IMG/VR virus record: IMGVR_UViG_3300037991_003250
DNA length: 64,000 nt
Source of the DNA: an uncultured virus (IMG/VR IMGVR_UViG_3300037991_003250)
Lineage: Duplodnaviria > Heunggongvirae > Uroviricota > Caudoviricetes
Strand: one strand, 5' to 3'
Part shown: positions 1-28,752 of the stretch, in pieces
How positions within the stretch are numbered: position 1 is the stretch's first letter
Layout: each line of letters begins with the position of its first letter
Position numbers and translations under genes: made by a program
Notes under the pieces: model-generated
The model's input: the letters and a program-made list of their open reading frames with translations, nothing else
Told to the model about the DNA's origin: nothing
Database searches by the model: none

Positions 1-429
1 CAGGGATTAGGGCCGAGCGAAACGCTCGCACCTTCTCCTTCTATTACCCATTCGTCTTACGCTGGCCCGTTGTCTAAATTGATATGCGGGCGCGAAGGGC
101 ATTTAGTGGGCCATCCCGAAGGAACATTACCTTCAAGAAAGGCCACAGATATTTTCACTAATGCTTGGCCCGCTTTTGAAGGGAGAAGACGCTCTAAAAA
201 TGGTATTCATGCAGGGGTTTACCACGCTTCCGCACCGAGAGGGGCTAAGACGGGCATACAGGGCTTGAACGATTGGATAGATGAAGAAAACGGTATTGTT
301 ATCGGAAAATATTGGCTTCGATCTTTGATTCCTTATGAATTAGGGTTTGATATGATAAATGCCGCAGAAGCAATTTTCAGCGAGGATTATGAATGGAATA
401 CCGACACCACCAATATGGGGTGGTTGTGA
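1..429 (+). CDS. Hypothetical protein, 5'-truncated by window edge
   Basis: Frame +1 is open from base 1 to TGA at 427-429, which overlaps the next ATG (TGATG). Confidence 0.55.
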   Translation, partial: QGLGPSETLAPSPSITHSSYAGPLSKLICGREGHLVGHPEGTLPSRKATDIFTNAWPAFEGRRRSKNGIHAGVYHASAPRGAKTGIQGLNDWIDEENGIVIGKYWLRSLIPYELGFDMINAAEAIFSEDYEWNTDTTNMGWL

Positions 430-767
430 TGCGTAAGTATAGCCCACCGCCGGATTTCAAAAGATACAACCATTGTGAGTGTGATGAAGGCACATTGTAT
501 GTATCGCATCAATACTTTTTACCGTTATATGTTTGTTCGACCTGCGGCTTTGCCGGACATGAACCTAATGTAAGAACCATAGATGGGGATATAGAAGACT
601 ATCCCGAAAGAGAAGCACACCTATTGCTCATCGAGCGTATGTATGAATGGATAGGTGTTGCCGCACCGAGAGCGCAAAAGGTATCGGGTCAAGCGAAAGA
701 ATACTTACAGGTATTGAAGGATTCAGCATTGGTGCTTCGGAATTGGAGATCGGAAAAGGGAGAATAA
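429..767 (+). CDS. Hypothetical Zn-ribbon protein
   Basis: CEC...CSTC motif; start coupled to upstream stop; ends just before the conserved promoter. Confidence 0.6.
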   Translation: MRKYSPPPDFKRYNHCECDEGTLYVSHQYFLPLYVCSTCGFAGHEPNVRTIDGDIEDYPEREAHLLLIERMYEWIGVAAPRAQKVSGQAKEYLQVLKDSALVLRNWRSEKGE

Positions 768-793
768 ACATCACCGCAAAAAGAGTTATAAAC
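766..793 (+). promoter_or_regulatory. Conserved viral early-type archaeal promoter
   Basis: AAACATCACCGCAAAAAGAGTTATAAAC; same motif recurs 8 times on the + strand. Confidence 0.8.
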
Positions 794-813
794 TACAAGA
801 TGCAGGAAAATTT

Positions 814-912
814 GTGAGGGAGTATGGCGTGGCTATCGAAAGCAAGGTGTTAGCCCAAAACCTATACCATGTTCGCTTCGGCGTATAAAAGAAGGATAAG
901 CCAGCCCCTCAC
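814..912 (+). ncRNA. Putative structured RNA / 5' leader, copy 1
   Basis: Starts 28 nt after the TATA; closed by GTGAGGGG/CCCCTCAC; nested stems shared with the copy at 2532. Confidence 0.65.
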
Positions 913-933
913 ACAAAAGAAGGAAATGAGAAT

Positions 934-1188
934 ATGATAGATGAAGAAGAAATAATTTACAAACAAAACGAGAACGAACACGCCATCCAGCGTTTTTCAA
1001 TGATGCTTGATGTGATAGAGAATGGAGATTGTGTCGAAGATTTTAGCGACTCAAAAATCATAACTAAAATACACACATTAACCATTTTGCTAAGGCAATA
1101 CATAAACGATCAAAATGATGAGATAGAACACCGAGCCATGTTTGAAAAGATGGTGGAAGAAAAGAAGAAACAATGGAGAGAGGCATGA
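934..1188 (+). CDS. Hypothetical protein
   Basis: 84-aa ORF downstream of the structured leader. Confidence 0.6.
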   Translation: MIDEEEIIYKQNENEHAIQRFSMMLDVIENGDCVEDFSDSKIITKIHTLTILLRQYINDQNDEIEHRAMFEKMVEEKKKQWREA

Positions 1189-1258
1189 ATGAGCCGTTGT
1201 CCGGTTGAACACGCAATCAGAAAGAAATGGGAACAAGACATGAAGGAGATGGAAAAAA

Positions 1259-1627
1259 ATGAGCATAACTAATTTTACAAGAGAAACAGGCTTTTGGGTC
1301 TGTGAAGATAAGACAGATGAAGAAACGATGGAAAGCCTATACCAATTTCTATTCAACACGAAATGGGGTTTGGTGGATAACATATACTTCGACCAATTGA
1401 AAACCTTTGAATCCTTTGAAGATTTCATAAAAAATAATACCCTCTTTTCTTTTAGATTGAAGGTGTGGGGCTTACAAGACCACATCACGATTAGGGTTAG
1501 AACAGAACACCAATCAATGATGCAACAAGCCTTCATGCACAATATCGCTCTCTCATGGTGGAAAGCGAATATGGATTCATTCATCAACCCATACCACTTA
1601 GATTTCAGCAAAGGTGAGGAAGAATGA
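1259..1627 (+). CDS. Hypothetical protein
   Basis: 122-aa ORF; ATGA overlap with next gene. Confidence 0.65.
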   Translation: MSITNFTRETGFWVCEDKTDEETMESLYQFLFNTKWGLVDNIYFDQLKTFESFEDFIKNNTLFSFRLKVWGLQDHITIRVRTEHQSMMQQAFMHNIALSWWKANMDSFINPYHLDFSKGEEE

Positions 1628-1845
1628 ATACACCGAAACCTCGATCTGTCGCCACACAAATTACACCGGACACAATTATAACCGGCGTTTTTTGTAATAG
1701 ATGCGGTAATGAATTACCACCGCATACTGCCGCAGAACACCTTGATAAAGATCATCCGGTGCATGAATGCCCGCACACAGATTCAATGTCCGACTACACG
1801 GTAGCGCACGACTATTTATTAGAAGACGAAGGAGAGGATGAATAA
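1624..1845 (+). CDS. Small Cys/His metal-binding protein
   Basis: CNRC...H...HEC; SD-like GGTGAGG upstream. Confidence 0.6.
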   Translation: MNTPKPRSVATQITPDTIITGVFCNRCGNELPPHTAAEHLDKDHPVHECPHTDSMSDYTVAHDYLLEDEGEDE

Positions 1846-1939
1846 TGCCGACCCGAAGACAGAAGGCCGCTCGCCGTTGGTTATACAGACAGAAATTCAA
1901 GGCACGAATAGCACATGAGATGATGGGGGAAGAAGAATA

Positions 1940-2095
1940 ATGGCTAAAAATTTTGAACCTAATTGCGAAGTCTATTTCAAACCTAATTACAAAGAATTAG
2001 CACGATTGGTTAAGGGTGTAAATCCAAAAAAAGTTACGGTTAAAATAATCATGGATGATGGAACAGAATACATAGGCAGGGTGGAACAACAATGA
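1940..2095 (+). CDS. Small hypothetical protein (51 aa, below ORF-track cutoff)
   Basis: MAKNFEPNCEVYFKPNYKELARLVKG...; ATGA-coupled to 2092. Confidence 0.5.
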   Translation: MAKNFEPNCEVYFKPNYKELARLVKGVNPKKVTVKIIMDDGTEYIGRVEQQ

Positions 2096-2397
2096 GCATA
2101 ATTGATAGATTCAAAGAAGGCAAATTAACATTGACCGATGCTATGTATGATGTATTCCTGCCTATCGTTAGCCACGAAAATAAGAATGTTGTTTTATTCC
2201 AGCATTTACACATGACCGAAGAATTGGTATTCCGAGCATTGAATGGATTACCATTGAAGGATTACGAAAGATTCGATAAACTCCGAAAGATGAACACAGG
2301 ATGGATTCTCGCCAACGGCGGGCAGGTCATGATCGTCAAGAGCGGAGAAGATACACAATTCATTTCCACCTTTAAATCAACAGGTGGATTAGTCTAA
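2092..2397 (+). CDS. Hypothetical protein
   Basis: 101-aa ORF in operon. Confidence 0.6.
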   Translation: MSIIDRFKEGKLTLTDAMYDVFLPIVSHENKNVVLFQHLHMTEELVFRALNGLPLKDYERFDKLRKMNTGWILANGGQVMIVKSGEDTQFISTFKSTGGLV

Positions 2398-2482
2398 CCC
2401 TTTGGGGTGAAGTCGCTATAAAAAACGAAGGGTATGTTCTTCTTTCTTCTTGTGTTATTGCCTCAACACAAGCGGCTCGCCC

Positions 2483-2509
2483 AAACATCACCGCTAAAAG
2501 ACTTAAGTA
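2483..2509 (+). promoter_or_regulatory. Conserved viral early-type promoter
   Basis: AAACATCACCGCTAAAAGACTTAAGTA. Confidence 0.8.
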
Positions 2510-2531
2510 GTATTACTATGTGATTTAATTT

Positions 2532-2626
2532 GTAGGAGGAATGGCGAGGCTACATCATAAGGCGTAGTCCAAACCAATAATACAATGCTCAATTTATTGA
2601 GAGCCATTGGATAAGCCACCCACTAC
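2532..2626 (+). ncRNA. Putative structured RNA / 5' leader, copy 2
   Basis: Shares TGGCGWGGCTA, TAGYCCAAA, ATACMATG and GGATAAGCCA with 814-912, with compensatory stem changes. Confidence 0.65.
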
Positions 2627-2642
2627 ACTAAAACATAAGGAG

Positions 2643-2924
2643 ATGAAGAAAATGGTTAGATCGAAGAAGAAATTACGCCGAGAAATAGGTTTGATTCTTG
2701 CAGAAGCAGAATCGCCCCTATATTCCGGCCAAATAGCAGACAGAATAGCAAACAGGGGTGTCGCATCGAGGACTGTTAATTTCAGTATTAACATAATTGC
2801 TGGCGCACTACGAGGCGCACATGGCGTTGAGGTTGTATATCCTCAAGGCGCGAGAATGAGAGGCGCGGCTATTCAATACAAAATGACGGACAAGAATGCG
2901 TTTGACGAGTGGGTGAATAAATGA
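2643..2924 (+). CDS. Winged-helix DNA-binding protein
   Basis: ILAEAESPLYSGQIADRI...IIAGALR pattern; SD AAGGAG before ATG 2643. Confidence 0.55.
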   Translation: MKKMVRSKKKLRREIGLILAEAESPLYSGQIADRIANRGVASRTVNFSINIIAGALRGAHGVEVVYPQGARMRGAAIQYKMTDKNAFDEWVNK

Positions 2925-3520
2925 ATATATTTGTGTTAGATGAAGACCCGATAAAGGCGGCTAAGATGTATTGTGATCGCCATATCCCGAAAATGTGTGT
3001 CGAATTACTACAACAAATTGGAAGCGCGGCAATCAAGCATGGCGCACAACCCGAACAATTGCCTCTCGCAAAGGCTACCCAAAAGCCGATACGAGGGGGC
3101 TACCACAACCACCCTTGCACAATTTGGGTGTCTATGTCGAGAGATAACTACCTATGGGCGGCACATCACGGTGCGGCTCTATGCGAGGAATACACAAAGC
3201 GATTCGGCAAAGAACATTACTGTGCTAACGGTATCGAGATTCTGTATGGTTTATCGTATCTCATACCCGAAGGCGACCTAACACCGTTTGCTCTCGCTAT
3301 GCCCGATGATTACAGACCACACTTGAACGAACATATAGGTGCGCCATTTGATATAGTGCCTAACGATGACTTTACTTTCATTAGCCACGCAAGCGGTGAT
3401 GATGCGGTTCAAGCATACCGCCGCTACTACCACGCTAAGGCATTCGCTAAGTGGGAGAAGGGGCGACCTATGCCCGATTGGTTCGATGTGGTAAAACAGG
3501 CGGTGTTGGCTGATGCGTAG
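2921..3520 (+). CDS. Pyrimidine-dimer DNA glycosylase / endonuclease V-like protein
   Basis: MNIFVLDEDP..AA..CDRH..KM..E, HNHPCTIW, EY..RFGK.H and AYR.YY motifs of the phage DenV-like family. Confidence 0.8.
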   Translation: MNIFVLDEDPIKAAKMYCDRHIPKMCVELLQQIGSAAIKHGAQPEQLPLAKATQKPIRGGYHNHPCTIWVSMSRDNYLWAAHHGAALCEEYTKRFGKEHYCANGIEILYGLSYLIPEGDLTPFALAMPDDYRPHLNEHIGAPFDIVPNDDFTFISHASGDDAVQAYRRYYHAKAFAKWEKGRPMPDWFDVVKQAVLADA

Positions 3521-3776
3521 TGAAGATGTATGGTATGGTTCAGACCCTTGCATTGACGCAGACTCTTTGCCTTCGTGGGTGTATGACTACGACAGATGTT
3601 CTGTGTGTGATAAGGCGCATCCAGATCAGGGTTATGACTTTGCTGAGTATGATATTGAGGTATGCGATTGTGTCGAATGCGAATCCTGCGGTGAATGGAA
3701 ATCCTTTGAAGACTTTTGTAATGTAGCCGAAATATGCGATTCATGTTATGATAAAGATCACCGCAAAAATACTTAA
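3513..3776 (+). CDS. Cys-rich acidic protein
   Basis: Multiple CxxC motifs. Confidence 0.55.
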   Translation: MRSEDVWYGSDPCIDADSLPSWVYDYDRCSVCDKAHPDQGYDFAEYDIEVCDCVECESCGEWKSFEDFCNVAEICDSCYDKDHRKNT

Positions 3777-3779
3777 ATA
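3753..3779 (+). promoter_or_regulatory. Conserved viral early-type promoter
   Basis: AAAGATCACCGCAAAAATACTTAAATA; ATG 28 nt downstream at 3801. Confidence 0.8.
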
Positions 3780-3800
3780 GAATTAATGAGAGGGAAAAAT

Positions 3801-4025
3801 ATGGGAAGTAGTTGGAATAGCAGACAACCTGCGAGAGATAAAGACGCATTGAAAAGAATTAGCAAGCGATATGATAGGTGGAAATCACGCTTTAGTGATT
3901 CAGTATCTTATCGCTTAGGCACGACTCACAAATGGAATGAGGCGAAAGTCAAGAAGTGGTTTGAATCGTTGCCTCGCACTATCGCCGCCCGCGAGAAGGC
4001 ATTTGTAAAGGAGATGAAGGAATGA
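3801..4025 (+). CDS. Basic hypothetical protein (leaderless start)
   Basis: Start chosen by the fixed 28-nt TATA-to-ATG spacing. Confidence 0.6.
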   Translation: MGSSWNSRQPARDKDALKRISKRYDRWKSRFSDSVSYRLGTTHKWNEAKVKKWFESLPRTIAAREKAFVKEMKE

Positions 4026-4095
4026 TTCCGATTTGTCCTAAGTGCAACCAATCAATCGGTTATTGTTCGGTGTATTCTTGTAGGAAGGTGGAACA

Positions 4096-4413
4096 ATGAG
4101 ATACCACACAGAACGAAGAAGAAAGGGAAAAATATCTAACGGTTGGAAATTACAAACCGTTGCTCGCTACCTGCGGGAGAATGGCGAGTCCAGCGCAATA
4201 AATATAGTCCAAAACGCAAGGAATAAGCGAGGAAGAAGCATCGATCTAACTACCAATTCATTAGCAAATAGAATGAAAAAGCACCCTTCTTTTTATGACC
4301 GTGTGCCGAAATTAGGAGATCCGCTTTACAATCGCAGAAACCCACAAAACAAGGTTTGGGGTGTCTATGATACCGAAGAAGTATTTGGAGAGAACGGTTG
4401 GGTTAAGTTATGA
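4096..4413 (+). CDS. Winged-helix protein, paralog of 7670-7999
   Basis: VARYLRENG...SLANRMKKHPSF versus AARYLVEQG...QVAARMQRCPAF. Confidence 0.6.
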   Translation: MRYHTERRRKGKISNGWKLQTVARYLRENGESSAINIVQNARNKRGRSIDLTTNSLANRMKKHPSFYDRVPKLGDPLYNRRNPQNKVWGVYDTEEVFGENGWVKL

Positions 4414-4501
4414 TTCGTGAATCATTTGAGGAATTGTTTGAGCGAGAAAAAGAAATAACCGTTGATTATATCCAAACAATCTCTTTAATAATACTCGCAA
4501 T

Positions 4502-5044
4502 ATGTTCTATTATCGTAGGATTATTCGTATGATAAAACAACGAGGGTTTTTTTTAACGCTTGAGAGTATTTGTGATGAGATTAACAAATCGCAATTAAGC
4601 ATTGATAATCATTTAGAGGCGGTTTACGATTACGAAGGCGATATGCCTATCAGAATACTTGTGCATGATAACCCACTAACACATCAGATTCAATTCTCAA
4701 TTGATTCTAAGCAAATGGTGGTATGTGGAAGGAAATACATGGCTATATGGTCTGACGACAAGCAAATGCGAATGCCCCTTCAACCCTTGAAGGCACAGGC
4801 ATACAAACCACCACATCTCTTAACCAAAGAGCAATTGAAAGGTATTATCACTAACTATTACCTTGCTTTAATTGAAGAATGGTATATTCCAACACAAGAC
4901 CAGCCGATCTTATTCAAGATGAATAGAGAGTGGGCTATCAAGTCAAGAGATAAAACACGGTCATTTTTAGAGCAAAATCAATTTGAAAATGATTTATTTC
5001 TTAACTTTGCAGAACCGCGAGAAAAAATAATTGCCTCGCAGTAA
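4502..5044 (+). CDS. Hypothetical protein
   Basis: 180-aa ORF; start uncertain. Confidence 0.55.
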   Translation: MFYYRRIIRMIKQRGFFLTLESICDEINKSQLSIDNHLEAVYDYEGDMPIRILVHDNPLTHQIQFSIDSKQMVVCGRKYMAIWSDDKQMRMPLQPLKAQAYKPPHLLTKEQLKGIITNYYLALIEEWYIPTQDQPILFKMNREWAIKSRDKTRSFLEQNQFENDLFLNFAEPREKIIASQ

Positions 5045-5165
5045 AGCGGTTTTGCTAATTCTTTTTTTACTTCAAAGGTAGTTAAGGAAACCTAACTAAT
5101 CTTACATACCTTTGAAGAAATAAAATAAATAAACAACAGGCTCGCAGTATCACGGTTATTTCTTT
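5020..5165. repeat. Palindromic AT-rich element, copy A (inverted copy at 52500-52641)
   Basis: CTTCAAAGGTA(5070-80)-N26-TACCTTTGAAG(5107-17), flanked by CGCAGTA direct repeats. Confidence 0.85.
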
Positions 5166-5220
5166 TTTGATTTTAGCGGTTTGTTGAAACAATTAAGAAG
5201 GGGAGAAAGTGGCCGGATAT

Positions 5221-5583
5221 ATGGCGAGTAAAACGAATAGACGATTTGTGGCTTCTGTTTGGAGTTATTTAGAACGAAACGGCGAGGCTACCACATCAGA
5301 AATAGCAGATTATATGATGACTAACGATAGAACGAAATTCCACGCGAGGCGTGAGAGATTAGGTGCGGTGCTTTCAAAATCTATATTGTTTGAAAAGGCG
5401 GGTGTTGTGAAAACGATAAACGCATCCGGCAATAATTCAACAAATGTCGTATGGAAATCAAGATCGTTAAAAGAAATCGTGGATAAAGCAATCAAGGGTA
5501 ATTTGAATAGTGATAAATTCCCTAAATTTTTCAAAGAAGCAATAGACAGAAGGAGAGAGATGAATGACCGTGAAAATTGTTGA
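5221..5583 (+). CDS. Winged-helix DNA-binding protein
   Basis: YLERNGEATTSEIADYM...LGAVLSKSILFEK. Confidence 0.6.
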   Translation: MASKTNRRFVASVWSYLERNGEATTSEIADYMMTNDRTKFHARRERLGAVLSKSILFEKAGVVKTINASGNNSTNVVWKSRSLKEIVDKAIKGNLNSDKFPKFFKEAIDRRREMNDRENC

Positions 5584-6349
5584 ATACAATCCTAATACTC
5601 CGTTCCCGTCTAAAATGATGGTGTTTGCGGATTCGACAGATGGCTTCGCCCCGTTCTTAGCGGGTATGTCTATGATAGGTAAAGACGAGGTATCAGAACC
5701 CGACCTTCGTATATTCTATTCCGGCACAGACGGGCAGACAGAAAATACAATCCCCGAACCTATGCCTATCGAATGGATGGGTTATTATGTTGAGAGCCGA
5801 GAAGGAGAAACCATACTTCTATTGAGGGTCGCTGGCGGTGATGTGTCGTGGGATAATGTCTTTACGAGTATTACCGCTTTCATGGATTCTAACTTGTCTT
5901 CGGATCTTGAAACGGTAGTGGTTTGTTCATCAATTATCTCAAGCACCTTTGCTAATACATTGGGTGAAGGAGAAATATGTATGTATGATTGGGTGGATGA
6001 TGAAAGAATCGGTATGTTTATGACTTCTGAGGGGTTCGCCGTTGATGGGGTGGCCGGAATACACGATGTAGGTTGGATGATACCGCACATCTTGAAGAAT
6101 ATTTACGGCTTCAATCAAGAGCAAGGAGATGAGAAGCAATTGTTTTCTATGTTGTATGCGCCTTCACAGACAAAAGATGTTGATGTGGATGCGGCTAAGA
6201 AGATGTGTGAATTTTACAATCAGTCATGGGATTTAGATACTGATATTGAGATGGTTGATGAAGTAGTCCTTGCTTTACTACAACAAATACGGCCAGCAGA
6301 ATCAGACGAATTTATGGGTAATGTCTTTGATTGGGGGGAATCGCATTGA
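5564..6349 (+). CDS. Acidic protein, possible divergent PAC2/Pba proteasome-assembly-chaperone fold
   Basis: 261 aa; C-terminal DVDAAKKMCEFYNQSWDLDTDIEMVDE resembles the PAC2-family DP.AA..l.e.l...l.id...L.e pattern. Confidence 0.4.
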   Translation: MTVKIVEYNPNTPFPSKMMVFADSTDGFAPFLAGMSMIGKDEVSEPDLRIFYSGTDGQTENTIPEPMPIEWMGYYVESREGETILLLRVAGGDVSWDNVFTSITAFMDSNLSSDLETVVVCSSIISSTFANTLGEGEICMYDWVDDERIGMFMTSEGFAVDGVAGIHDVGWMIPHILKNIYGFNQEQGDEKQLFSMLYAPSQTKDVDVDAAKKMCEFYNQSWDLDTDIEMVDEVVLALLQQIRPAESDEFMGNVFDWGESH

Positions 6350-7677
6350 ATATCTTTAACACGCTACACAAATTCGTTCAAGATAACCATTATGTTGATG
6401 TGGAAGATAAGTTAGACATATTCATTTGTTCTATTGGTTCTCACATATTCAACACGCTAAACAAATGTAGCCGATGCGACTTCGATCCCGATAGCGCATT
6501 AGTCAATGTTGAAGAAGGAGATTTCGCAATAGAGAATTGTCCGTTGCGACACGCCAATATGCCGTTTTACACACCTATGGCTCAATTGCCGGACACGCGC
6601 ATACACATACTAATTAGAGGCAACAAGGGTTCGGGTAAATCCGTTCTAATCAATCTGTTCTTAGCAGAACGCACAGGACTTCTTTATTATCAAAACTCCG
6701 ATTTAGGAGAAGGGTTTAGAACAATGCTTGCCCCTAACTCATTGACCGAAGCAGGTATGTTCGGTTCTGTTGGTGAAGAAGGAGATATTTTAGGCCGACC
6801 TTTAGCGAGGGAAATGTGCGGCGGATTCTTAGGCTTTGAAGAATTTTCTTCCATGTCTGATGCCGCCAAAAAAGACCATAGCCTTGATATGAAAAACCAA
6901 TTGCTGACTTCTCTTGATAACGGCAGGGTGCAGAAGGCCATGCGTAATGGGTGGGTGCGATACACTACACGCTACACAGTATGGGCTGGAACGCAACCCG
7001 CACGATTTGAGTTAGATTCGGGTCTTGACCGAAGATTCTTCATCATAGATATACAGATGACTCCCGAAAAAGAACGGTTGTTTAAACAGGCACAACACGC
7101 TCAAGCGAATACTTCGCCGGAAATGCGATTAGACATAGCCAATAGAACCATAGCGATTCGCACATGGTTTAGACAACGCATGGAACAGGCCGTAGCAAAT
7201 CCCCCGACAGGAATTATATTCAACGATGATGTGATGGAGTGGATTGACCGACCCGATGTGCGCTCGTTTGAGGCGGATCTATTCCGCAGGATATGTATTG
7301 GTTATGCTATGATGCAGGAAGAATATGTTGGTGGTGGCCCTCTCATCGTATCACTTGACGATGATTTGAGGCGTATTCTCAATCAGTCGCTTGAGATGAG
7401 GCGAAGGGTGATGGATGCAGACCTTGAATTGATACGCACGACTTTTTGGATGAAAGACCTTCCAAAGTCGCAGTTAGTCAAGGAAATTAGCAGAATGATT
7501 ACAAATGGCGACTATCAAATGGCTAAGGTGTGGATTGAAGAAAATCTTGAGGCTCGCTCATGGTATATGGAATACACACCAAAGAAAGCAGGGCGTGGTC
7601 GCAAAGGTATTACTTGCAGATTCGGCAATCCTGCCGAGCCTGTTAAGACTCAGAAGTGGGGTGAAAATAATGAGTAA
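6331..7677 (+). CDS. MCM-like AAA+ helicase lacking the canonical N-terminal OB domain
   Basis: Walker A GNKGSGKS, SLTEAGMFG, Walker B GFEEFSSM, sensor WAGTQP, Arg finger LDRRF; real start possibly TTG 6346. Confidence 0.75.
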   Translation: MGGIALNIFNTLHKFVQDNHYVDVEDKLDIFICSIGSHIFNTLNKCSRCDFDPDSALVNVEEGDFAIENCPLRHANMPFYTPMAQLPDTRIHILIRGNKGSGKSVLINLFLAERTGLLYYQNSDLGEGFRTMLAPNSLTEAGMFGSVGEEGDILGRPLAREMCGGFLGFEEFSSMSDAAKKDHSLDMKNQLLTSLDNGRVQKAMRNGWVRYTTRYTVWAGTQPARFELDSGLDRRFFIIDIQMTPEKERLFKQAQHAQANTSPEMRLDIANRTIAIRTWFRQRMEQAVANPPTGIIFNDDVMEWIDRPDVRSFEADLFRRICIGYAMMQEEYVGGGPLIVSLDDDLRRILNQSLEMRRRVMDADLELIRTTFWMKDLPKSQLVKEISRMITNGDYQMAKVWIEENLEARSWYMEYTPKKAGRGRKGITCRFGNPAEPVKTQKWGENNE

Positions 7678-7999
7678 TATTAAGAGAGCGAAATGGAGTA
7701 GGAGTAAAGCCCTTGAATGTGCGGCACGATACCTTGTGGAACAAGGCAGACCAATGAGTGCCGCTACTGTTTATGATAACATGAGATACAAGAATGATTT
7801 AAGGTCGGGTGAAATTGGAAAATTATACAGGGTAAATAGAAGCGCACAAAATTCTATGCAGGTTGCGGCAAGGATGCAACGATGCCCTGCTTTCAAGAAA
7901 GAAAGAATAAACCCAAGAGAACCGTATGTATTCTCCTGCGACAAGGAAACTTATGATAAGTGGTGGCCGGAAGACCCACTAAGGGGGTTGAGCCGATGA
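7670..7999 (+). CDS. Winged-helix protein
   Basis: Paralog of 4096-4413; SD GGGTGA before ATG 7670. Confidence 0.6.
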   Translation: MSNIKRAKWSRSKALECAARYLVEQGRPMSAATVYDNMRYKNDLRSGEIGKLYRVNRSAQNSMQVAARMQRCPAFKKERINPREPYVFSCDKETYDKWWPEDPLRGLSR

Positions 8000-8622
8000 G
8001 AACAAGGCGAGAAATAGAAGATCGAATGGTGCGTGAGGATGACCCATTCTCCGTTGAGGTTCTAAGGTGGGTTCTTGATGGCGGTTGTCCTATGTGTAAG
8101 CACAAGAACCGTAAGGAATACGAGATACAGATTCACACAGAAGAAGTGGGAACGCATTTCTTAGAAATCAAACATGGTTGGGCGGAAGGAACAATCGTTG
8201 AACACATGGAAAATCATATTGATTACGACCCGTCTGAGGCCGAACACATAGAGGATGCACGAAGACAATCTATCAACACATTAGATGCCGCAGAAGACAT
8301 TGTAAATAGGATTCGTGGCTATCTTGACGAGTTAGAGGAAGAAAAGGAAGCGAGCGGCGGTGGTATCACATCAGAATTTGTAGCCGATGCCGCCCGTCTG
8401 ATTGCACAGGCCAATTCAAGTCTAAAATTAGTGGGTCAATTGAAGAAAGAAATCGGCGTTGATTCTCAATTGCTTCTCGCGGAAGCACGATTGAATCAGA
8501 TGAACAGAATACTCGTTGATACTTTGATTGAGCAACCCGAATTATTAGACCGTATCGAAAATAAAATGCGGTTGTTAAATGAACCAACCGTAATAGATGC
8601 TAAATTTGAGGTTAAAGAATGA
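7996..8622 (+). CDS. Zn-HTH plus coiled-coil protein (terminase small subunit-like)
   Basis: CPMCKH..R...H...H motif followed by a long helical oligomerisation-type region. Confidence 0.4.
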   Translation: MRTRREIEDRMVREDDPFSVEVLRWVLDGGCPMCKHKNRKEYEIQIHTEEVGTHFLEIKHGWAEGTIVEHMENHIDYDPSEAEHIEDARRQSINTLDAAEDIVNRIRGYLDELEEEKEASGGGITSEFVADAARLIAQANSSLKLVGQLKKEIGVDSQLLLAEARLNQMNRILVDTLIEQPELLDRIENKMRLLNEPTVIDAKFEVKE

Positions 8623-8876
8623 AGACATGGCGCAAATCCTCAAACAAAACCCTATGGGCGAGGCCGATTTACGAACACGAATGGCCTAAGTTAATTCAAG
8701 CCATGAAGGAAGATGGGCTTCTCGCTATCATACAATCTGATGGTGTTAAGTGGTATGTCGGCGGCTACAAATTAACTGATGTGTCGGTTGCTGATGCGTG
8801 GGGCTTAAAACGAAAACAGATGAATAGGCTCAAGGATTACATCTTAGTTAATGATCCGTTTTTGAGGGATGAATAA
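8619..8876 (+). CDS. Hypothetical protein
   Basis: 85-aa ORF coupled to neighbours on both sides. Confidence 0.6.
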   Translation: MKTWRKSSNKTLWARPIYEHEWPKLIQAMKEDGLLAIIQSDGVKWYVGGYKLTDVSVADAWGLKRKQMNRLKDYILVNDPFLRDE

Positions 8877-9535
8877 TGATTATTTTTTCTTCTGACCCCG
8901 AACCGTTCAGAACGGAAAATTGCATTGAGATGTATGGGGAGATAGACACATTACCAACGACACCAAATATAACCTTTATTTTACACGCAGATAATTTCAC
9001 CGAGAAGAAGGCTAACGAATGGTTGCCGATTATCTCACACCGATTAGTGGTAATCACGGACAAATACCCTAAGTTATCTAAGAATCACGATGAGCGGATC
9101 GCAATTCATCCGAGCCTAAAGAAAAACAACGATGATTATTCACGCAGAATCAAATGGTTATTCGGTTGGACTGATAGACGAAGGGTGTATGAGCAAATCA
9201 AAGATATTCCTATGCCTCTTATGATGGCTTTTGTGAAAGAAAATGTGCATGATATTAACTTGCATCGTCTTTTTGCATCGTCTAATTTTGTTTTAGGTGA
9301 AGACAAGAGTAAATCGATCCTATCATACGGCATAAAACCGACAAACGATAGGATGAAATGGCCTAAGAAGAAGAAGAAAACAGAAGGTGCGCCCGCCCCA
9401 TTCCGTTCTGATGATTTGTATTGGGATAAAATAATTACAAAACAGGTTGCAGTAGCCAATGAAGTTAGAGTGCTTAATAAGGACATACCATCCGTGATTA
9501 AAAAGCGGAAGGAGAGGGAAACTAAATGGCTGTGA
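8876..9535 (+). CDS. Hypothetical protein (possible degenerate clamp-loader subunit)
   Basis: 219 aa in the replication module; ends ...ETKWL. Confidence 0.5.
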   Translation: MIIFSSDPEPFRTENCIEMYGEIDTLPTTPNITFILHADNFTEKKANEWLPIISHRLVVITDKYPKLSKNHDERIAIHPSLKKNNDDYSRRIKWLFGWTDRRRVYEQIKDIPMPLMMAFVKENVHDINLHRLFASSNFVLGEDKSKSILSYGIKPTNDRMKWPKKKKKTEGAPAPFRSDDLYWDKIITKQVAVANEVRVLNKDIPSVIKKRKERETKWL

Positions 9536-9699
9536 GTATTACAACCGTTTTTTTATGTATGTTGTATTTTCCCTTAGCGGCTTTTTTGTATGGTTTATTA
9601 GGTGGCGGTAATTCATCTGTGGTGTATCACCCTACCAAAAATAATTACGATGAATCTATTTCCGAAGGTATGATGTGGTATTCTTTAGGTGATGAGTAA
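9526..9699 (+). CDS. Small membrane protein (57 aa)
   Basis: MAVSITTVFLCMLYFPLAAFLYGLLGG hydrophobic helix; SD GGAG upstream. Confidence 0.5.
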   Translation: MAVSITTVFLCMLYFPLAAFLYGLLGGGNSSVVYHPTKNNYDESISEGMMWYSLGDE

Positions 9700-9735
9700 A
9701 ACTATTGAAATAACCACGACTGACTCTTAAATGTT

Positions 9736-10152
9736 ATGAGCGCGAACAACCGGCGCATACGCCGGATTGTTGTTGATTTGTTGTGGGAACACGGCGAAAG
9801 CACGAAAGAGCGCATGGCTAAACTTTTGGCTAAACACAAATCCGTTAGGAACATACCATCCCCGCATTCTCTTTCGTCTATCTTGAGAAAGAATACGCAG
9901 GTTATCATTGTTGGATCGGAGAAAGTCGAGAATGCCGTTGGTGTGTCGGCTAAACATCTTGTCTATGATATTGACCGATACCTTGTGCGTGAAAAAGAGG
10001 ACTTAATCTATACAAGAAGTCCGACTGTGATGACTCCTAAGCAACGAGAGGCGGCACAGAAATGTTCGTGTGGTAAATTGCGAGTATTTCCGCCGTATTC
10101 ACCCGATATGTGCCTTCATTGTTATAGAAACCCCGAAAACGATTTTGAATAA
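9736..10152 (+). CDS. Winged-helix plus C-terminal Zn ribbon protein
   Basis: LLWEHGESTKERMA...SLSSILRKN; CSC...CLHC. Confidence 0.6.
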   Translation: MSANNRRIRRIVVDLLWEHGESTKERMAKLLAKHKSVRNIPSPHSLSSILRKNTQVIIVGSEKVENAVGVSAKHLVYDIDRYLVREKEDLIYTRSPTVMTPKQREAAQKCSCGKLRVFPPYSPDMCLHCYRNPENDFE

Positions 10153-10178
10153 AGATCACCGCAAAAACAGTTATAAAG
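10151..10178 (+). promoter_or_regulatory. Conserved viral early-type promoter
   Basis: AAAGATCACCGCAAAAACAGTTATAAAG; ATG 28 nt later at 10199. Confidence 0.8.
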
Positions 10179-10198
10179 TATAACTGCGAGGACTATAT

Positions 10199-10429
10199 AT
10201 GAGAGCGAAGACGATACCCCATGTCGAATATGAAATTTTTAACCACCTTTTAGATACGGTGGATATTGAGCCATTACGCCGCCGCTTGTGTCCGGCTGGC
10301 GATACTGTGGCTAAGGAACGATTTGAGAAAGGGTTTGAGTCGGCGGCTAACTTGATTAACAATCTATGTGAGCGAAGACTACACCGATTGCCGGAACAAC
10401 ACCCCGACTACAAGGAGAAGGGCGAATGA
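10199..10429 (+). CDS. Hypothetical protein (leaderless)
   Basis: 76-aa ORF at the promoter-defined start. Confidence 0.65.
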   Translation: MRAKTIPHVEYEIFNHLLDTVDIEPLRRRLCPAGDTVAKERFEKGFESAANLINNLCERRLHRLPEQHPDYKEKGE

Positions 10430-10650
10430 GGCAACACATCATAGACGGATCGACAATGAAGCGAATATGCGGAGATGATACACAGTATGGTTATGTGTCT
10501 GATGAAGAATATAAGACATGGGAAAAATGCCCTGTATGTTTTTCCGAAGGAAGGATAGTATTACCCGCAAGGCGTGTTAAAGCACATACTAATATACCGG
10601 AGAATGAGCCACAGGTTAAGACGGCATTATACTTGAGGTCGGCACTATGA
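10426..10650 (+). CDS. Hypothetical protein with CxxC
   Basis: Coupled ORF containing CPVC. Confidence 0.55.
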   Translation: MRQHIIDGSTMKRICGDDTQYGYVSDEEYKTWEKCPVCFSEGRIVLPARRVKAHTNIPENEPQVKTALYLRSAL

Positions 10651-10726
10651 TACAGATATACAAAGATTGTTTTCCGTTGAGCATCACGCCCGAATCCTTA
10701 ATTATCGGTGTGAGTAAGTTAGTATC

Positions 10727-11095
10727 ATGCGTGATGAATGGGGCGATTTTATGAGCCACTTCATTTCATCCCTTGAGCAATCTTCGGGCCACCATACCCG
10801 ACTCATGGAAATACTAAACGATGAATCGCTAACTATGAGCAGAATCACCAAAGAAGCGATTATACAGGCTATTTCACCCAACCCATCTTATGAGAATGAG
10901 GGGTTGGAAACGATAATCGAAGGACTCGATTTCCAATACTTACAGGGTATGTTATTGGGTCTTGTTATGTCGTTAGACATAGTGCAAATCAAACAAGCAT
11001 TCACAACGCCTATGAGCGCAGAACAGAAAGATCTAATCAATCTCTATACTGCGGTCGAAGCGATATTGATAGAAAAAATTGGGGGAGAATTATGA
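10727..11095 (+). CDS. Hypothetical helical protein
   Basis: 122-aa ORF. Confidence 0.6.
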   Translation: MRDEWGDFMSHFISSLEQSSGHHTRLMEILNDESLTMSRITKEAIIQAISPNPSYENEGLETIIEGLDFQYLQGMLLGLVMSLDIVQIKQAFTTPMSAEQKDLINLYTAVEAILIEKIGGEL

Positions 11096-11107
11096 GGGGG
11101 GTTTGGA

Positions 11108-12088
11108 ATGACCGAAGTATGGTCGCAAAAATATAGGCCGAACAAATTAGAAGATATGGTGGGGCAACATCAGTTATTGAGTGAATTTGATTCACTTTTA
11201 GATGACGACTATAATTCGATTAAACCGAAATATGTAATGCAACACTACTTGTTCTATTCTCCCGAAGCGGGAGTCGGTAAAACTACATTGGCGAGAATCA
11301 TAGCCGAGAAATTGGGAATGCAATTGTTCTCATACAATGCCTCAACAAAGCATGAGCGGGGTATTGACTTCGTGGAGAATGAATTACTCCCTATGAGCAG
11401 GAATGGTAATTATCGCCAAATCTATTTGCTTGACGAAGCGGATCAATTAACTCCTGCCGCACAGTCGGCACTAAAGGGCGTTATAGAAAACGCTCAAGGT
11501 TATTTTATTCTGACCTGTAATGATTTGTCTAAGGTATCTCGTTGGCTACAATCCCGATGCAGGACACTTAGGTTTGAGCCGATACCCGAAGACGAGATGG
11601 TTGAGAGATTATCCTATATCGCGGCACATGAAAATGTTGATGTTAGATTAGCAGACCTGCATACAATTGCTAAGGCTCACAAGGGCGACTTACGCAATTC
11701 GATAAACGCGCTTCAAGCATTCGCGGGTCTTACTCCCCGCGATGGCGACAGATTTTTGCTATCTCTCAAGCCACAAGAAATTGACGCTAATTCTTTTCTC
11801 AAGTCCTGCGTAGCCGAAGGCGACTACGAGAAGGCTATGACCTATATTGGCGACAGACCAATACGACAAACAATAAATTCCATATTTTCTTATGCGGTGA
11901 ATAGCAACGCTAAACCTGCGGCCAAAATGAGAGTCATTGAGGCGGCGGTTCAGTCGGAACGGGATCTGCTTATCGGTGTTGATGAAGACATTGTGAAGCA
12001 TAACTTTGTAGTGATGTGTTGCGATACATCACAGTTATATACCGGAGAAAATGCGGAGAGGATAACCAAACAAGGTGTATTGTTATGA
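11108..12088 (+). CDS. rfcS: Replication factor C small subunit (clamp loader)
   Basis: WSQKYRP, GVGKTT, NAS..RGID, LLDEADQLT..AQSAL, LQSRC, GDLR.SIN.LQ. Confidence 0.93.
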   Translation: MTEVWSQKYRPNKLEDMVGQHQLLSEFDSLLDDDYNSIKPKYVMQHYLFYSPEAGVGKTTLARIIAEKLGMQLFSYNASTKHERGIDFVENELLPMSRNGNYRQIYLLDEADQLTPAAQSALKGVIENAQGYFILTCNDLSKVSRWLQSRCRTLRFEPIPEDEMVERLSYIAAHENVDVRLADLHTIAKAHKGDLRNSINALQAFAGLTPRDGDRFLLSLKPQEIDANSFLKSCVAEGDYEKAMTYIGDRPIRQTINSIFSYAVNSNAKPAAKMRVIEAAVQSERDLLIGVDEDIVKHNFVVMCCDTSQLYTGENAERITKQGVLL

Positions 12089-21072: not shown

Positions 21073-21771
21073 ATGTTGATAGTGGATGACCGAGAAAACG
21101 AGGTCGTCATAAATAAAATAATGGCTAAATTAGGTGATGCTGATGCTAAAGGCGGCAAAGCCAAAGTCAGACGATTAACTGCGGCAGACTATATCATAGG
21201 CAATCGTGGTATCGAGGCTAAGGAAATAAATGACCTTTACCGTTCTATTCTCGGCATGGGAAGGACACGGACAATCTTAGATCAATTGAGAGATTTAGAC
21301 GAGGAATTTGACGAGCCTATGCTTGTCGTCTATGGAACAACCCTCAAGCCCTATGTGCGAGGTAAAATGACTAAGCGAGATTACGCTATCGAAACCGCTA
21401 AGATGAAAAAAACAATCCTTTCTTTTAAGCAGACCTTCTATCAAAGATTTCCACGAATCAAATACATGGAATTTGCTACGATGGAAGAATTTGTTGATTT
21501 CTTAGCGGTGTCGCACACACAAATGGAAGTAGTCAAGAAGGCTAAACAACCACGCCCTGTTGCTGGAAGGCCGCTCGATCCGAGAGTATCGGCACTAACA
21601 CACATACACGGTATTACACCGGAGAGGGCGGAAGCCGTCTTGAAGAAATTTGGTTCGATACCCAACCTTCTTCTCAAGAAAACCACACAGAAGGAATTGA
21701 TGGAGATAGAGGGAATAACCCGCACGATGGCGAGAAAAATACTCGCTCTTAGAAATGATTACTCAAATTGA
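21073..21771 (+). CDS. ERCC4/XPF-family structure-specific nuclease with HhH motifs
   Basis: IVDDRE, ADYII, IEAK..DL..SI; C-terminal tandem HhH. Confidence 0.88.
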   Translation: MLIVDDRENEVVINKIMAKLGDADAKGGKAKVRRLTAADYIIGNRGIEAKEINDLYRSILGMGRTRTILDQLRDLDEEFDEPMLVVYGTTLKPYVRGKMTKRDYAIETAKMKKTILSFKQTFYQRFPRIKYMEFATMEEFVDFLAVSHTQMEVVKKAKQPRPVAGRPLDPRVSALTHIHGITPERAEAVLKKFGSIPNLLLKKTTQKELMEIEGITRTMARKILALRNDYSN

Positions 21772-24700
21772 GAAAACTTATTCGATTGCGTTTCTGCTAT
21801 AAATGCAGATCTTCTTTGGTTTAATTTCACATCATGTATAACAACAGAATGGTTTGAGTTATCATTACCGACTCCCCGCCTTCTGTAAATCCTTACTCTT
21901 AGGTTATTACCAATCGTTCCTGCACCGTTCAAAGTCTGCGTATCAATAACGCTTATTGTTTGTTTATTCACGCCACTTTCTAATTCGACAAAACCGTTTA
22001 GCGTTGCGTTGGTTTCTATACACCTTATTTCAGCATAAATAATTGCTTTTCCTACAATATTACTATTTGGTCCGTGTGATAAGTTAAGAGATAAGCCGAC
22101 TTCATTAGTGATTACATCAGAAGACACTACGAAATCTCCGCTTATTTCTGATGTAGTGGAATATGCCGCATCAACATTAAAGTTAGAAGCGGATAAACTA
22201 AATCCGTCTGCCGTTTTAGTTGCTGATCCATCAGAAGGAGAAAACTTAGATGTTGCGTTTAGCGAAGAACGGATGGCCGAAGGTGCTACCTGTGGCTTCT
22301 TTTGACCTAAGATACCAAAATTACCTTGAGGGGTATAGGCATCCCCATCAAGAGCCATCCTACCTTTTATTTTTGAAAGGAAATTAGGGCTAAATTGATT
22401 CACGCTTAATTGCTTTGTATATTGTGTGGCGTTTCCACCATCCCTATTACCACTACCAGCGTCACCGCCGCCTTCGGGGTTTTGTTTGTTTGGGTCATCT
22501 TCTTCTCCTACTACTCCATCCGGTGTTGAGTCAAGACCAGCCGATGCGCCCGATTGCGAACCTGTAGGTTCTGTATTTCTTGGCTGATGTATATTCGATG
22601 GGAATGTTGGGAAAAGATAGGAAGTAATGCCGCCAGCAGACAACGATTCATCACGCTCTAAATCTAAGACTACATCTTCTATTTCCCTGCCTCTCACCGA
22701 CCAATCTATGCGGCGTATAACCATTGTTTCATTGTTAAGACCTAAACCTGCATCAGTATATTTTACATAAGTTGCTGGAACATAATTATAATCATAAGTA
22801 ATATGGACTCTTGGTGCATACCATTCCGTTCTATCATCTGCAAATGAAGACATTTCTGTGTATTTTCTCATGCCGAGAGGGAATATGCTATTTGTGTTAT
22901 ATGGAGAACCAAAAGAAGTTATGCCTGTAATATCGTGAGCATTCTTTAGAATGTTAGCACCGGTTGGGTCGCCGCATCTGTGGCGCAACAAAGCCCTGCA
23001 ATAGTCGGCGTTAAACGAGATAACAATAGAGCCGTCATTCAGTATTCCGTCAGCATCATAACTGTCCGGCACTTTGATTTCATAGAATCCGCTTTGAACC
23101 GCATCAGCCTTTTCATAGCCGTTAGTAGCAAGACTCGCAACCATTGTCGGTGCGCCGCCACCTTTTGCGCTACTGCTTGTTGAATAACTGTAATCGTAAA
23201 GACCGATTGTGAATTGTGCATCGTCAATTGTTGTGCCGCCCGAAAGATGAACCGCTACTTTCAATTCCTCTCCTGTTGTGTCGCTAACTAAAGGACACTT
23301 AGAAGGCACATGGACTATTTGCACCGCATGAGCCAATGAGTTAGCACCATAGAAATAATAATTATCATCATAATTTATTGTGCTACTACTACCAGCAGAC
23401 GCAGAATTGCCGTATCTGTTGTATATGTCTGTCGAAGTCTTTAGGTTGCCGTTTAGAGCGTTAGCCATACCTGTGAAGGGCGCACCACCAGCCGCAAGGG
23501 AAGTCCATGACGAACCACCGGCTATGGCGTTATTGTAGCCCTGTATAGCCCTGTATGGGTCTGCTATGTAGCCATACCTACCATGTGTTAACATTAAGTC
23601 GTCTGTGCTTGCATCTCGCATAGGTGTGGCCTTAACAGACAATCTCGATTCTTTCAATGAATCATAAGCCTTCTTAGCCACAGATAATGCTTCAAGATCA
23701 CCATTTATTTCGGGGTATTCTAATATCTTCCATCGTGTCGTATCGGTAAGTGCCGCTTCGGGGTAATCAACAAATGATTGTCCGTTTCTATAATACAACC
23801 TAACATGAGATACTTGACCTGCTACATTTGTTTTAAGGTTATTTATTTTTATGTTATCTCTCGATAAATCATGGCCGGAATTGTATTTAGGTCTGTATTC
23901 GATTCTTCCATCCCTACCTGCTAAGTAAGAAAATGTAGTCGGTAAACCATTGTTATAACCAACACCCGAACCATCTTTTATTTTCTTTATCGTTCCCCAC
24001 AGGGTTTTACCCCTGCTATCAACAATTGATCCGTATGAATCGTTGCTTGTCTTGTCGTTGTATGTAGTCATGTTTGTGGTGATAGGCACATTGTTAATGT
24101 CGAATATAACAGGTAGTCTTGTTTGCGGCATCCATGTTTGCATAAGTCCAGCATTCCAAAGCAAGCGGAATTTGTCGCTATCCCAATAAGAACCCATGTT
24201 AGGTGAGCGCACGAAGCCGTCAATATCCATTATTAACCTTAATAGATAAAGAGGGGCTAAAGAAATACTAACAGTTAGCGTTCCATTTGTTCCACTAATA
24301 GAAGAATTTACACACCTTTTACTATGGGTTACCGTTGAAAACGCATTTCCTATTTCGTCAATCAATTCTGAGGGGGTCATGTTATACGAATCGGCTATAT
24401 CAACAGTAATTACATCATAAAGTTGTGTCGGTATTTCGTAATTATCTCCACTACTCCAATATGCCTGTTCATGGACTCTTAAATCCCTCATGTCGCTTAC
24501 TTTGTGAAAACCTGCCGTCATATCCCCATCCCTCATACCCAATATATCAGACTCGGTGTAATACATTAAATCAACAGTTAATTGTGTTTCGCTAACTACA
24601 GATCTAACTCTAAACATTAAACTCAATGAATATACCACACCATCAACAGTATAGGTTTCATTAGTAAGTGGGGTTGTTGTATTCTTAATACACATACCAG

Positions 24701-28748: not shown

Positions 28749-28752
28749 AAGA

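Follow-up and report, generated by a model that had tools for sequence, protein, structure and literature searches.

Two diverged copies of an uncatalogued structured RNA family in an uncultured marine tailed phage

Two elements behind promoter-like sequences

The DNA examined here (the window, 64,000 nucleotides of the IMG/VR record IMGVR_UViG_3300037991_003250) belongs to an uncultured phage with a genome of about 65-70 kb. It is a tailed phage with genes for the terminase large subunit (TerL), portal, tape measure, DNA polymerase and clamp loader; most of its other genes have no family match. Close to the start of the window lie two non-coding elements, el1 and el2 (Table 1), which are two diverged copies, of subtypes A and D, of an uncatalogued RNA family found in a clade of uncultured marine tailed phages. 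A sequence-only reading had proposed two homologous structured RNAs at these positions, each preceding an open reading frame (ORF), and the proposal is confirmed by alignment, by profile and covariance-model searches and by the relatives that these searches brought together; the ORFs are the genes listed directly after the elements in Table 1. The two copies share about 60% identity over the full element length (MAFFT), and no third copy was found in the window by a two-copy nhmmer profile or by the covariance models R1 and R2. Near-identical copies of el1 occur in L001/L002/L038/L031, and the R2 score of el2 is the lowest among the true members.

Both elements lie behind a copy of a promoter-like motif of about 31 nt, AAA[C/G]ATCACCGC[T/A]AAAAG..TTAAATAGTAT (..TTA.A), which has eight copies on the + strand of the window. 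At two mismatches or fewer the motif has 14 matches against 5.5 expected, and none of 100 shuffles reaches 14. The alignment bears out the earlier observation that six copies lead to an ATG and two to an element: in the six, GAGG is followed by ATG at a fixed distance (alignment columns 65-67), whereas the two AAAC copies, at 766 and 2483, have AATTTG and the element in that place. Because of this fixed distance to a Shine-Dalgarno (SD) sequence and ATG in the six other copies, the motif is likely to be a phage-specific promoter. It is unlike the sigma-70 -35/-10 pair, and no RNA polymerase or sigma factor gene was recognised among the window genes. By analogy with the six other copies, transcription of el1 and el2 would start about 13-15 nt upstream of P1, the outer helix. 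The elements had been thought to begin at the transcription start itself; what stands of this is the position after the promoter, which holds for the window and for subtypes A and B, in which P1 begins about 0-15 nt from the inferred start. Promoter proximity is not a trait of the whole family, because subtype C sits between a stop codon and the SD sequence of the clamp-loader gene.

Table 1. Positions of the two RNA elements, their parts and neighbouring features in the window
Feature	Position	Strand	Details
Promoter-like motif, all copies	766, 2483, 3753, 10151, 61428, 62032, 62715, 63703	+	Alignment
Promoter-like copy upstream of el1	766..796	+	Begins AAACATCACCGCAAAAAGAGTTATAAA...; one of eight aligned copies
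Promoter-like copy upstream of el2	2483..2513	+	One of eight aligned copies
el1, family member of subtype A	814..912	+	99 nt; R1 109 bits; R2 64 bits, E 7e-17
el1 outer helix P1	814-820/906-912	+	GUGAGGG (5' strand)/CCCUCAC, 7 bp
el1 closing stem (P2)	825-828/900-903	+	UGGC/GCCA
el1 P3 hairpin	831-835/851-855	+	GGCUA/UAGCC; loop 836-850
el1 junction strand	856..860	+	CAAAA
el1 P4	861-863/893-895	+	CCU/AGG
el1 internal-loop strand	865..868	+	UACC; candidate pseudoknot partner GGUG 846-849 of the P3 loop; tentative
el1 P5 hairpin	870-876/881-887	+	UGUUCGC/GCGUAUA; UUCG loop 877-880
el1 junction strand	896..899	+	AUAA
First gene after el1	934..1188	+	84 aa, no family match; ortholog after the element in L006, L024, L026
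Small arginine-rich ORF	1845..1940	+	31 aa, ends GEEE; homologs are the first gene after subtype-B elements
el2, family member of subtype D	2532..2626	+	95 nt; R2 55 bits, E 4.5e-14
el2 P1	2532-2535/2623-2626 plus 2538-2539/2619-2620
el2 closing stem	2542-2545/2615-2618
el2 P3	2548-2553/2564-2569
el2 junction strand	2570-2573		CAAA
el2 P4	2574-2578/2606-2610		CCAAU/AUUGG
el2 P5	2588-2593/2596-2601		UU loop
el2 junction strand	2611-2614		AUAA
First gene after el2	2643..2924	+	93 aa, basic N-terminus, no family match

A family with a covarying three-way junction

Pattern and covariance-model searches of viral and marine contigs, in the direction that had been suggested, brought together a larger family: 41 distinct members were parsed and further ones noticed, on about 50 IMG/VR viral contigs and nine marine metagenome contigs. 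Searches with flanking proteins and a first strict pattern returned close relatives only. A looser pattern gave nine true members among 18 metagenome loci, the other nine being chance matches, together with L044 among the viral contigs. When R1 was applied to related records in full, diverged members turned up in G009 and G021, and the core pattern derived from them, GGCGNGGYTA...TAGYCCA...AACC, selected 49 viral loci. R1 matched 36 of the 44 viral loci given to it, and R2, the broader model, recovered four more (L135, L143, L150 and L154). The pattern matches at L020, L022, L138, L152, L166 and L247 look like chance, as does L134, which had an R1 E-value of 0.002 but was missed by R2 and lies in GC-rich, coding-like sequence. 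Weak R2 matches were seen in G028 and G025, and a scan for an accessory hairpin (described below) combined with R2 added L250, L238/L249 and L252. Among 48 bacterial and archaeal pattern matches, scanned with R1 and not with R2, just six weak R1 matches appeared (E 0.005-0.1), which we take as chance; on present evidence, the family seems to be confined to phages. Cultured phages gave no DNA match to the window region or to a subtype-C locus, and the TerL relatives in the cultured-phage collection are all less than 60% identical, the best places listed lying at 23-25%.

The core of the family is a three-way junction made of a closing stem, GGC/GCC, the P3 hairpin and an arm running from P4 into P5, with the junction strands GA, CAAA(A) and AUAA. 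GGC/GCC is invariant in all 41 members, and the two pairs outside it covary (UA, AU, GC, CG), none of 2,000 shuffles reaching the observed pairing; the junction bases GA are kept in 34 of the 41. P3 takes the form GGYUA-N/N'-UAGYC with a loop of 9-13 nt, and its sixth pair occurs as all four Watson-Crick types (C-G 21, G-C 9, A-U 5, U-A 4, with one U.G); it is paired in 40 of 41 members, el1 alone having U.U. The strand between P3 and P4 is CAAAA in 26 members, CAAA in 11 and CACAAAA in 4. The third pair of P4 (CC-N/N'-GG) is Watson-Crick in 41 of 41 (A-U 17, G-C 14, U-A 10; 0/2000 shuffles), and the strand leading from P4 back to the closing stem is AUAA in 34 of 41. The base of P5 covaries as well (CGC/GCG, CGG/CUG, CGG/CCG). 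Across an alignment made with R2 (A8), 91.9% of cells are paired, compared with 83.0% after shuffling, and the score for covariation reaches 0.252, compared with 0.112 after shuffling (0/500); slid partners pair in 8-47% of cells; the 11 'unpaired' cells of subtype D arise because this subtype is one column out of register at P4 in that alignment. In a separate test with 13 sequences of subtypes A and B, eight pairs showed double changes (0/500), some of them in P1 and at the base of P5. The junction strands and the pairs adjoining them are nearly invariant, and the distal stems vary freely. These tallies and shuffles show that the RNA fold is family-wide and that covariation among the homologs is strong, with compensatory changes in every helix, as the comparison of the two copies had already indicated.

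The helices P2 (UGGC/GCCA), P3, P4 and P5 of the sequence-only reading were correct and are now backed by relatives, but its letters for P1 of el1, GUGAGGGG/CCCCUCAC, were wrong, the sequence instead reading GUGAGGG/CCCUCAC. Among the unpaired strings it gave as conserved, CAAA(A) and AUAA are family-wide, whereas just the GG of AAGG is kept and AUACMAUG is specific to a subtype. In el2, the strain variants A2537G and C2619T retain the P1 pairing. Single-sequence folding of el1 and el2 gives back the same helices, with energies modestly below those of shuffles (z -1.9 and -2.7); because of this modest difference, the case for structure rests on covariation and not on energy.

The family matches no known one, as had been anticipated. 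Rfam 15, whose models include hammerhead, HDV, twister, twister-sister, pistol, hatchet, pRNA, THF, purine, c-di-GMP, C4, 6S and Y RNA-like, gave no match in the whole window at the gathering score, none overlapping 814-912 or 2532-2626 at E<=10, and none at E<=1 in 15 relatives of subtypes B, C and D; ARAGORN found no tRNA or tmRNA gene in the window. A tRNA-like NCCA end was considered and set aside, since only those members that have an outer P1 scaffold show ACC(A/U) after the outermost helix; el1 and el2 have ACAA and ACUA there. Searches of the literature by keywords and by sequence words of the core and the accessory hairpin, at the level of listings, returned nothing relevant, and on that basis alone the motif is absent from print.

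A short conserved protein-coding ORF, or a site acting at the DNA level, is scarcely credible as an account of these elements. Both window copies do hold a tiny ATG ORF (MAWLSKARC and MARLHHKA), and in subtype B a GUG lies in frame after an SD-like UAAGGGGGU. However, the start is lost in L006, L008 and L005 (ATG to AAG) and in subtypes C and D, P5 insertions that are not multiples of three break the frames, and start, frame and stop are all unconserved. The covariation keeps pairing and not codons. In addition, P3 pair 2 is G.U in 18 of 41 members, and because G.U in P3 would become A.C mismatches on the opposite strand, the folded molecule is the + strand RNA and not a DNA element. Taken together, the covarying homologs and the Rfam and ARAGORN results speak for a structured RNA motif that is new, and against both a tiny ORF and membership of a known family.

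A contact between the two arms is probable. The P3 loop has GG towards its 3' end, opposite a CC on the 5' side of the internal loop between P4 and P5; with GG/CC as the anchor, 22 of the 23 distinct loop combinations can form a helix of 3 bp or more. This candidate pseudoknot reaches 5-6 bp in subtype D and shows a clean switch from U-A to C-G (UUUGGG/UCCAAG to UUCGGG/UCCGAG); the pairs were tallied by script, as 4 of the 11 subtype-D rows in the MAFFT alignment were out of register by one base. In a generic control for run length the result is weak (57 of 1,000 shuffles reach the observed mean), and for this reason we regard the pairing of P3-loop GG with internal-loop CC, which would lock both arms side by side, as probable.

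Variable parts, turnover and gene context

Outside the core, the family is variable. The outer helix P1 is optional and, where present, is complementary with quite different sequences (GGGGGUGUAGUGGG/CCCACACACCCCC in L008, GGGGGAAUAGCAAC/GUUGCUAUUCCCCC in L044 and GGGGGUCGUGUAGG/CCUACACACCCCC in L133). The P5 tip ranges from UUCG (4 nt) to more than 200 nt, and in DNA contigs of two runs, otherwise identical, the el1 loop bases 877-880 are replaced by 57 bases. An accessory hairpin (GGUCGGRGAGAGAUWARA...) can take three positions: on the tip of P5, on the 3' side of the closing stem, or ahead of the element on its 5' side. Of its 18 viral occurrences, 16 adjoin a family member or lie within one; L241, one of the two other loci, has the same outer P1 scaffold around a different interior. 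In the form GGGUCGGAGAGAGAU[U/A]AGA...GCGCCC, the hairpin is seen in L142, L145, L157, L163, L181, L044, L133, L027, L005, L174 and L183, and it is absent from the window. Long G-rich/C-rich hairpins with interiors unrelated to the core lie at about 195-345 of L241 (- strand), 3730-3920 of L009 and 530-600 of L146; they keep the 5' flank ACAUAAG, followed by G, and the 3' flank ACC, preceded by C. To judge from such sequences, the outer P1 looks like a reusable scaffold.

Members also turn over between related genomes. One copy each was found with R1 or R2 in 13 related records (G002, G004, G005, G006, G009, G021, G035, G036, G037, G039, G040, G041 and G042), and two tandem copies in G038. The tandem members (L163 273-578, - strand; G038:25499-25804) have near-identical flanks of about 35-40 nt each and different cores, subtype D and then C, which suggests duplication followed by core exchange. 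In L002, a near-identical relative of the window, the el2 site (3585-3720) is occupied by a small zinc-ribbon ORF (CxxC...CxC) with TTTAATTTG on either side, an arrangement that appears to be a cassette-like replacement. In L009, the subtype-B promoter leads straight into a 199-aa gene, the element and the arginine-rich ORF missing together.

This accessory-type turnover (the replacement at the el2 site, the remnants, the core swap between tandem copies and the mobility of the accessory hairpin) would suit a small RNA that is excised from the leader by host RNases and acts in trans, whether as a self-assembling RNA or as a decoy or sponge directed at a host factor or a defence system. The long outer P1 of 13-14 bp with its conserved flanks (ACAUAAG before G, and ACC(U/A) after C) could serve as the scaffold, and other 'cargo' RNAs held by it in L241 and L009 suggest a processing cassette. 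The loop pair GGU(U)/(A)ACC could equally form between molecules, as in the pRNA of phi29. This pRNA, encoded by phi29-like phages with protein-primed DNA, binds the connector and pairs intermolecularly through its loops, and the family resembles it in being a phage-encoded RNA (about 120 nt in the case of pRNA), usually single-copy, with a three-way junction and two loops complementary over about 4 nt. In contrast to pRNA, however, the family has no Rfam pRNA match, its element lies inside mRNAs and is dispensable, and the window has the usual terminase large subunit and portal; on these points it is not a pRNA. Moreover, subtype C has a 6-bp closing stem only and no scaffold, no terminator or separate promoter was found, and no target was identified, so we consider an excised RNA improbable.

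The RNA shares its strand with the neighbouring genes and lies in their mRNA, as a 5' leader or an intergenic spacer. A same-strand ORF with an SD-like motif follows 37 of the 41 members, at 22-36 nt after the closing stem in about two thirds. In subtype C, the most numerous, the element starts about 9 nt after the upstream stop codon, the next SD sequence comes about 10-15 nt after the closing stem, and the gene is the clamp loader. This close fit to the stop-to-SD spacer, with the SD open, the element dispensable and P1 of subtypes A and B about 0-15 nt from the inferred transcription start, might be expected of a stabiliser and insulator, a compact fold, at the 5' end of an mRNA or between its genes, which would stop RNases that scan or depend on a 5' end and would screen the ribosome-binding site behind it from the upstream context. 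Yet a stable hairpin would suffice for this purpose, which leaves the invariant junction, the covarying three-way junction and the cross-subtype loop contact unexplained, and fold energies are modestly below those of shuffles (z -0.6 to -3.2); such a role is quite improbable.

The genes downstream are mixed: the clamp loader (about 15 distinct members), small arginine-rich or zinc-ribbon ORFs, a basic MVR... protein, a Dcm-like methyltransferase gene, ORF84 and unknowns. Arginine-rich ORFs follow subtype-B elements and L174, a basic ORF follows L044, and zinc-ribbon ORFs ending in EEE follow L170 and L132. Many small basic ORFs beside the element end in an acidic tail (EEE stop), at window 1845-1940 and in L170, L132, L142, L144, L153 and L157. 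For the window ORF at 1845..1940, a functional link to the element is a lead only.

The order of promoter, element and arginine-rich ORF in subtype B resembles that of PL-nutL-N in lambda, which has nutL/nutR sites and the N protein; HK022 has the putL and putR RNAs. A put RNA consists of two adjacent stem-loops, about 70 nt in all, in the nascent early-operon transcript, and downstream terminators are read through. A similar element, whose nascent RNA binds RNA polymerase, alone or with a small arginine-rich protein, for read-through of terminators in early operons, would account for the two diverged copies in the window, each right behind an early promoter copy, and for the joint loss of element and arginine-rich ORF in L009. 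However, the fold is a three-way junction and not two hairpins or a boxB hairpin, there is no terminator-like site near 39 of 41 members, many members, subtype C among them, are not promoter-proximal, and most genomes have one copy. In window 1-12000, 11 terminator-like sites were found against 9.4 expected by chance, and none on the + strand in the two operons behind the elements, in a scan that left out Rho-dependent terminators. The family is thus unlike put RNA on these points, and an antitermination role is distinctly improbable.

Other features of the window were noted. DNA contigs of related strains skip 33 bases (1771-1805) and 155 bases (1935-2091), the second removing a 51-aa ORF (1940-2095), which shows a gene-content polymorphism in the early operon. 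A 2335-aa ORF adjoining the tape measure gene (21759-28766, - strand) has no PHROG or Pfam match.

Possible functions of the RNA

In general kind, the element is an orphan riboswitch- or ribozyme-like phage RNA motif, and it constitutes a new family. The reading that we favour, tentatively and with somewhat less than even confidence, is a receptor domain that acts in cis and recognises either a ligand or one of the phage's small proteins. We base it on the nearly invariant junction, the free distal stems, the insert-tolerant P5 tip and the base-pair switch in the candidate pseudoknot; action in cis is proposed because a same-strand, SD-bearing ORF follows 37 of 41 members, with no intervening terminator-like site save in L150 and L154. 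The small basic ORFs beside the element, and the joint loss of element and arginine-rich ORF in L009, also count in its favour. The invariant junction and the tertiary lock of the pseudoknot would form a specific receptor, and this would bind a factor supplied in trans, either a small molecule or a small basic (arginine-rich or zinc-ribbon) phage protein, often encoded next to the element. The bound receptor would then act on its own mRNA, setting the translation or survival of the genes that in most members begin 22-36 nt past the closing stem; in the window, it would control two early operons, 934-2397 and 2643 onward.

Among known systems, the orphan riboswitch-like aptamers with a three-way junction and a long-range loop contact, such as the THF-I riboswitch, resemble the family in their size of about 70-100 nt, closing helix, conserved junction strands, pairing between hairpin and internal loop, and sense-strand position in the 5' untranslated region; the present family differs in having no Rfam match, no expression platform, mixed downstream genes, an occurrence on phage contigs only so far, and dispensability. 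Among phages, T4 has translational operators, namely the gene 32 leader pseudoknot and the RegA sites on the gene 44/45 mRNAs, which are simple or unstructured. They are alike in that an RNA element lies just before replication genes such as the clamp loader and may be under phage-protein control; there is, however, no homology, and no repressor was identified for the family.

Several results weigh against a cis-acting receptor. Of the features looked for in a riboswitch, an aptamer with covariation is present, and neither an expression platform nor an association with the genes of one pathway was found; the mixed downstream functions are unlike those of a metabolite riboswitch. The SD sequence is mostly unpaired in predictions (median unpaired probability 0.75, n=37) rather than sequestered, and no expression platform emerged from terminators either, as 39 of 41 members have no terminator-like site between element and gene, the exceptions being L150 and L154. 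Sequestration of the SD by the C-rich P1 strand was considered and rejected, there being no consistent complementarity. No RNA-binding family was found among the window proteins, and no partner protein was identified there. Contigs from two metatranscriptome runs cover 1372-1597 and 2079-2476 only, at a depth of 3-6, outside the elements. The element is also dispensable, being absent or degraded in some close complete relatives: R1 and R2 found none in the near-complete G011, G014 and G018, and the complete G003 has a 45-nt remnant. Finally, el2 is the only member without the internal-loop CC, and it may be decaying.

The same distribution bears on another explanation: the RNA might be a small ribozyme of a new class, self-cleaving or otherwise self-processing, and cut the polycistronic mRNA of the phage beside the element. 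The family is phage-only, intergenic and sporadic among close relatives, with unrelated downstream genes and tandem copies in L163/G038, and such a distribution recalls small ribozymes in phages. The architecture also fits: minimal forms measure 70-100 nt, the junction is conserved, the loops have a candidate tertiary contact and the distal stems vary freely. In most of these respects the phage self-cleaving ribozymes (hammerhead, twister-sister, pistol and hatchet) are alike. However, the family matches neither their models nor those of HDV, twister or any other Rfam entry, its junction strands (2, 4-5 and 4 nt) misfit the hammerhead core, most genomes have a single copy, and the prior for a new ribozyme class is low; we therefore regard this as rather unlikely. 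More broadly, it is unlikely, though worth keeping in view, that the element represents a new functional RNA class, either such a ribozyme or an aptamer carried by phages, which would detect a signal of host state or of defence (nucleotide, alarmone or cyclic oligonucleotide) and thereby set the timing of early and replication genes. If this were true, the P1 scaffold with its swappable 'cargo' domains would amount to a modular display of structured RNAs at the 5' ends of phage early transcripts.

Complex, covariation-backed RNA motifs without an Rfam match are rare, and it is mainly from them that new classes of riboswitch and ribozyme have come. The present element is a compact three-way-junction scaffold that takes inserts of more than 200 nt, and it is small enough for direct testing, with minimal forms of 70-100 nt (L163a, L169 and el1). 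Natural 'mutants' are available in el2, which has no loop contact, in the internal deletion of G003 and in P5 tips of differing length. Its carriers are abundant uncultured marine phages, and even if the element turns out to be no more than a leader, or the operator of a small phage protein, it offers a way into the study of regulation in this clade.

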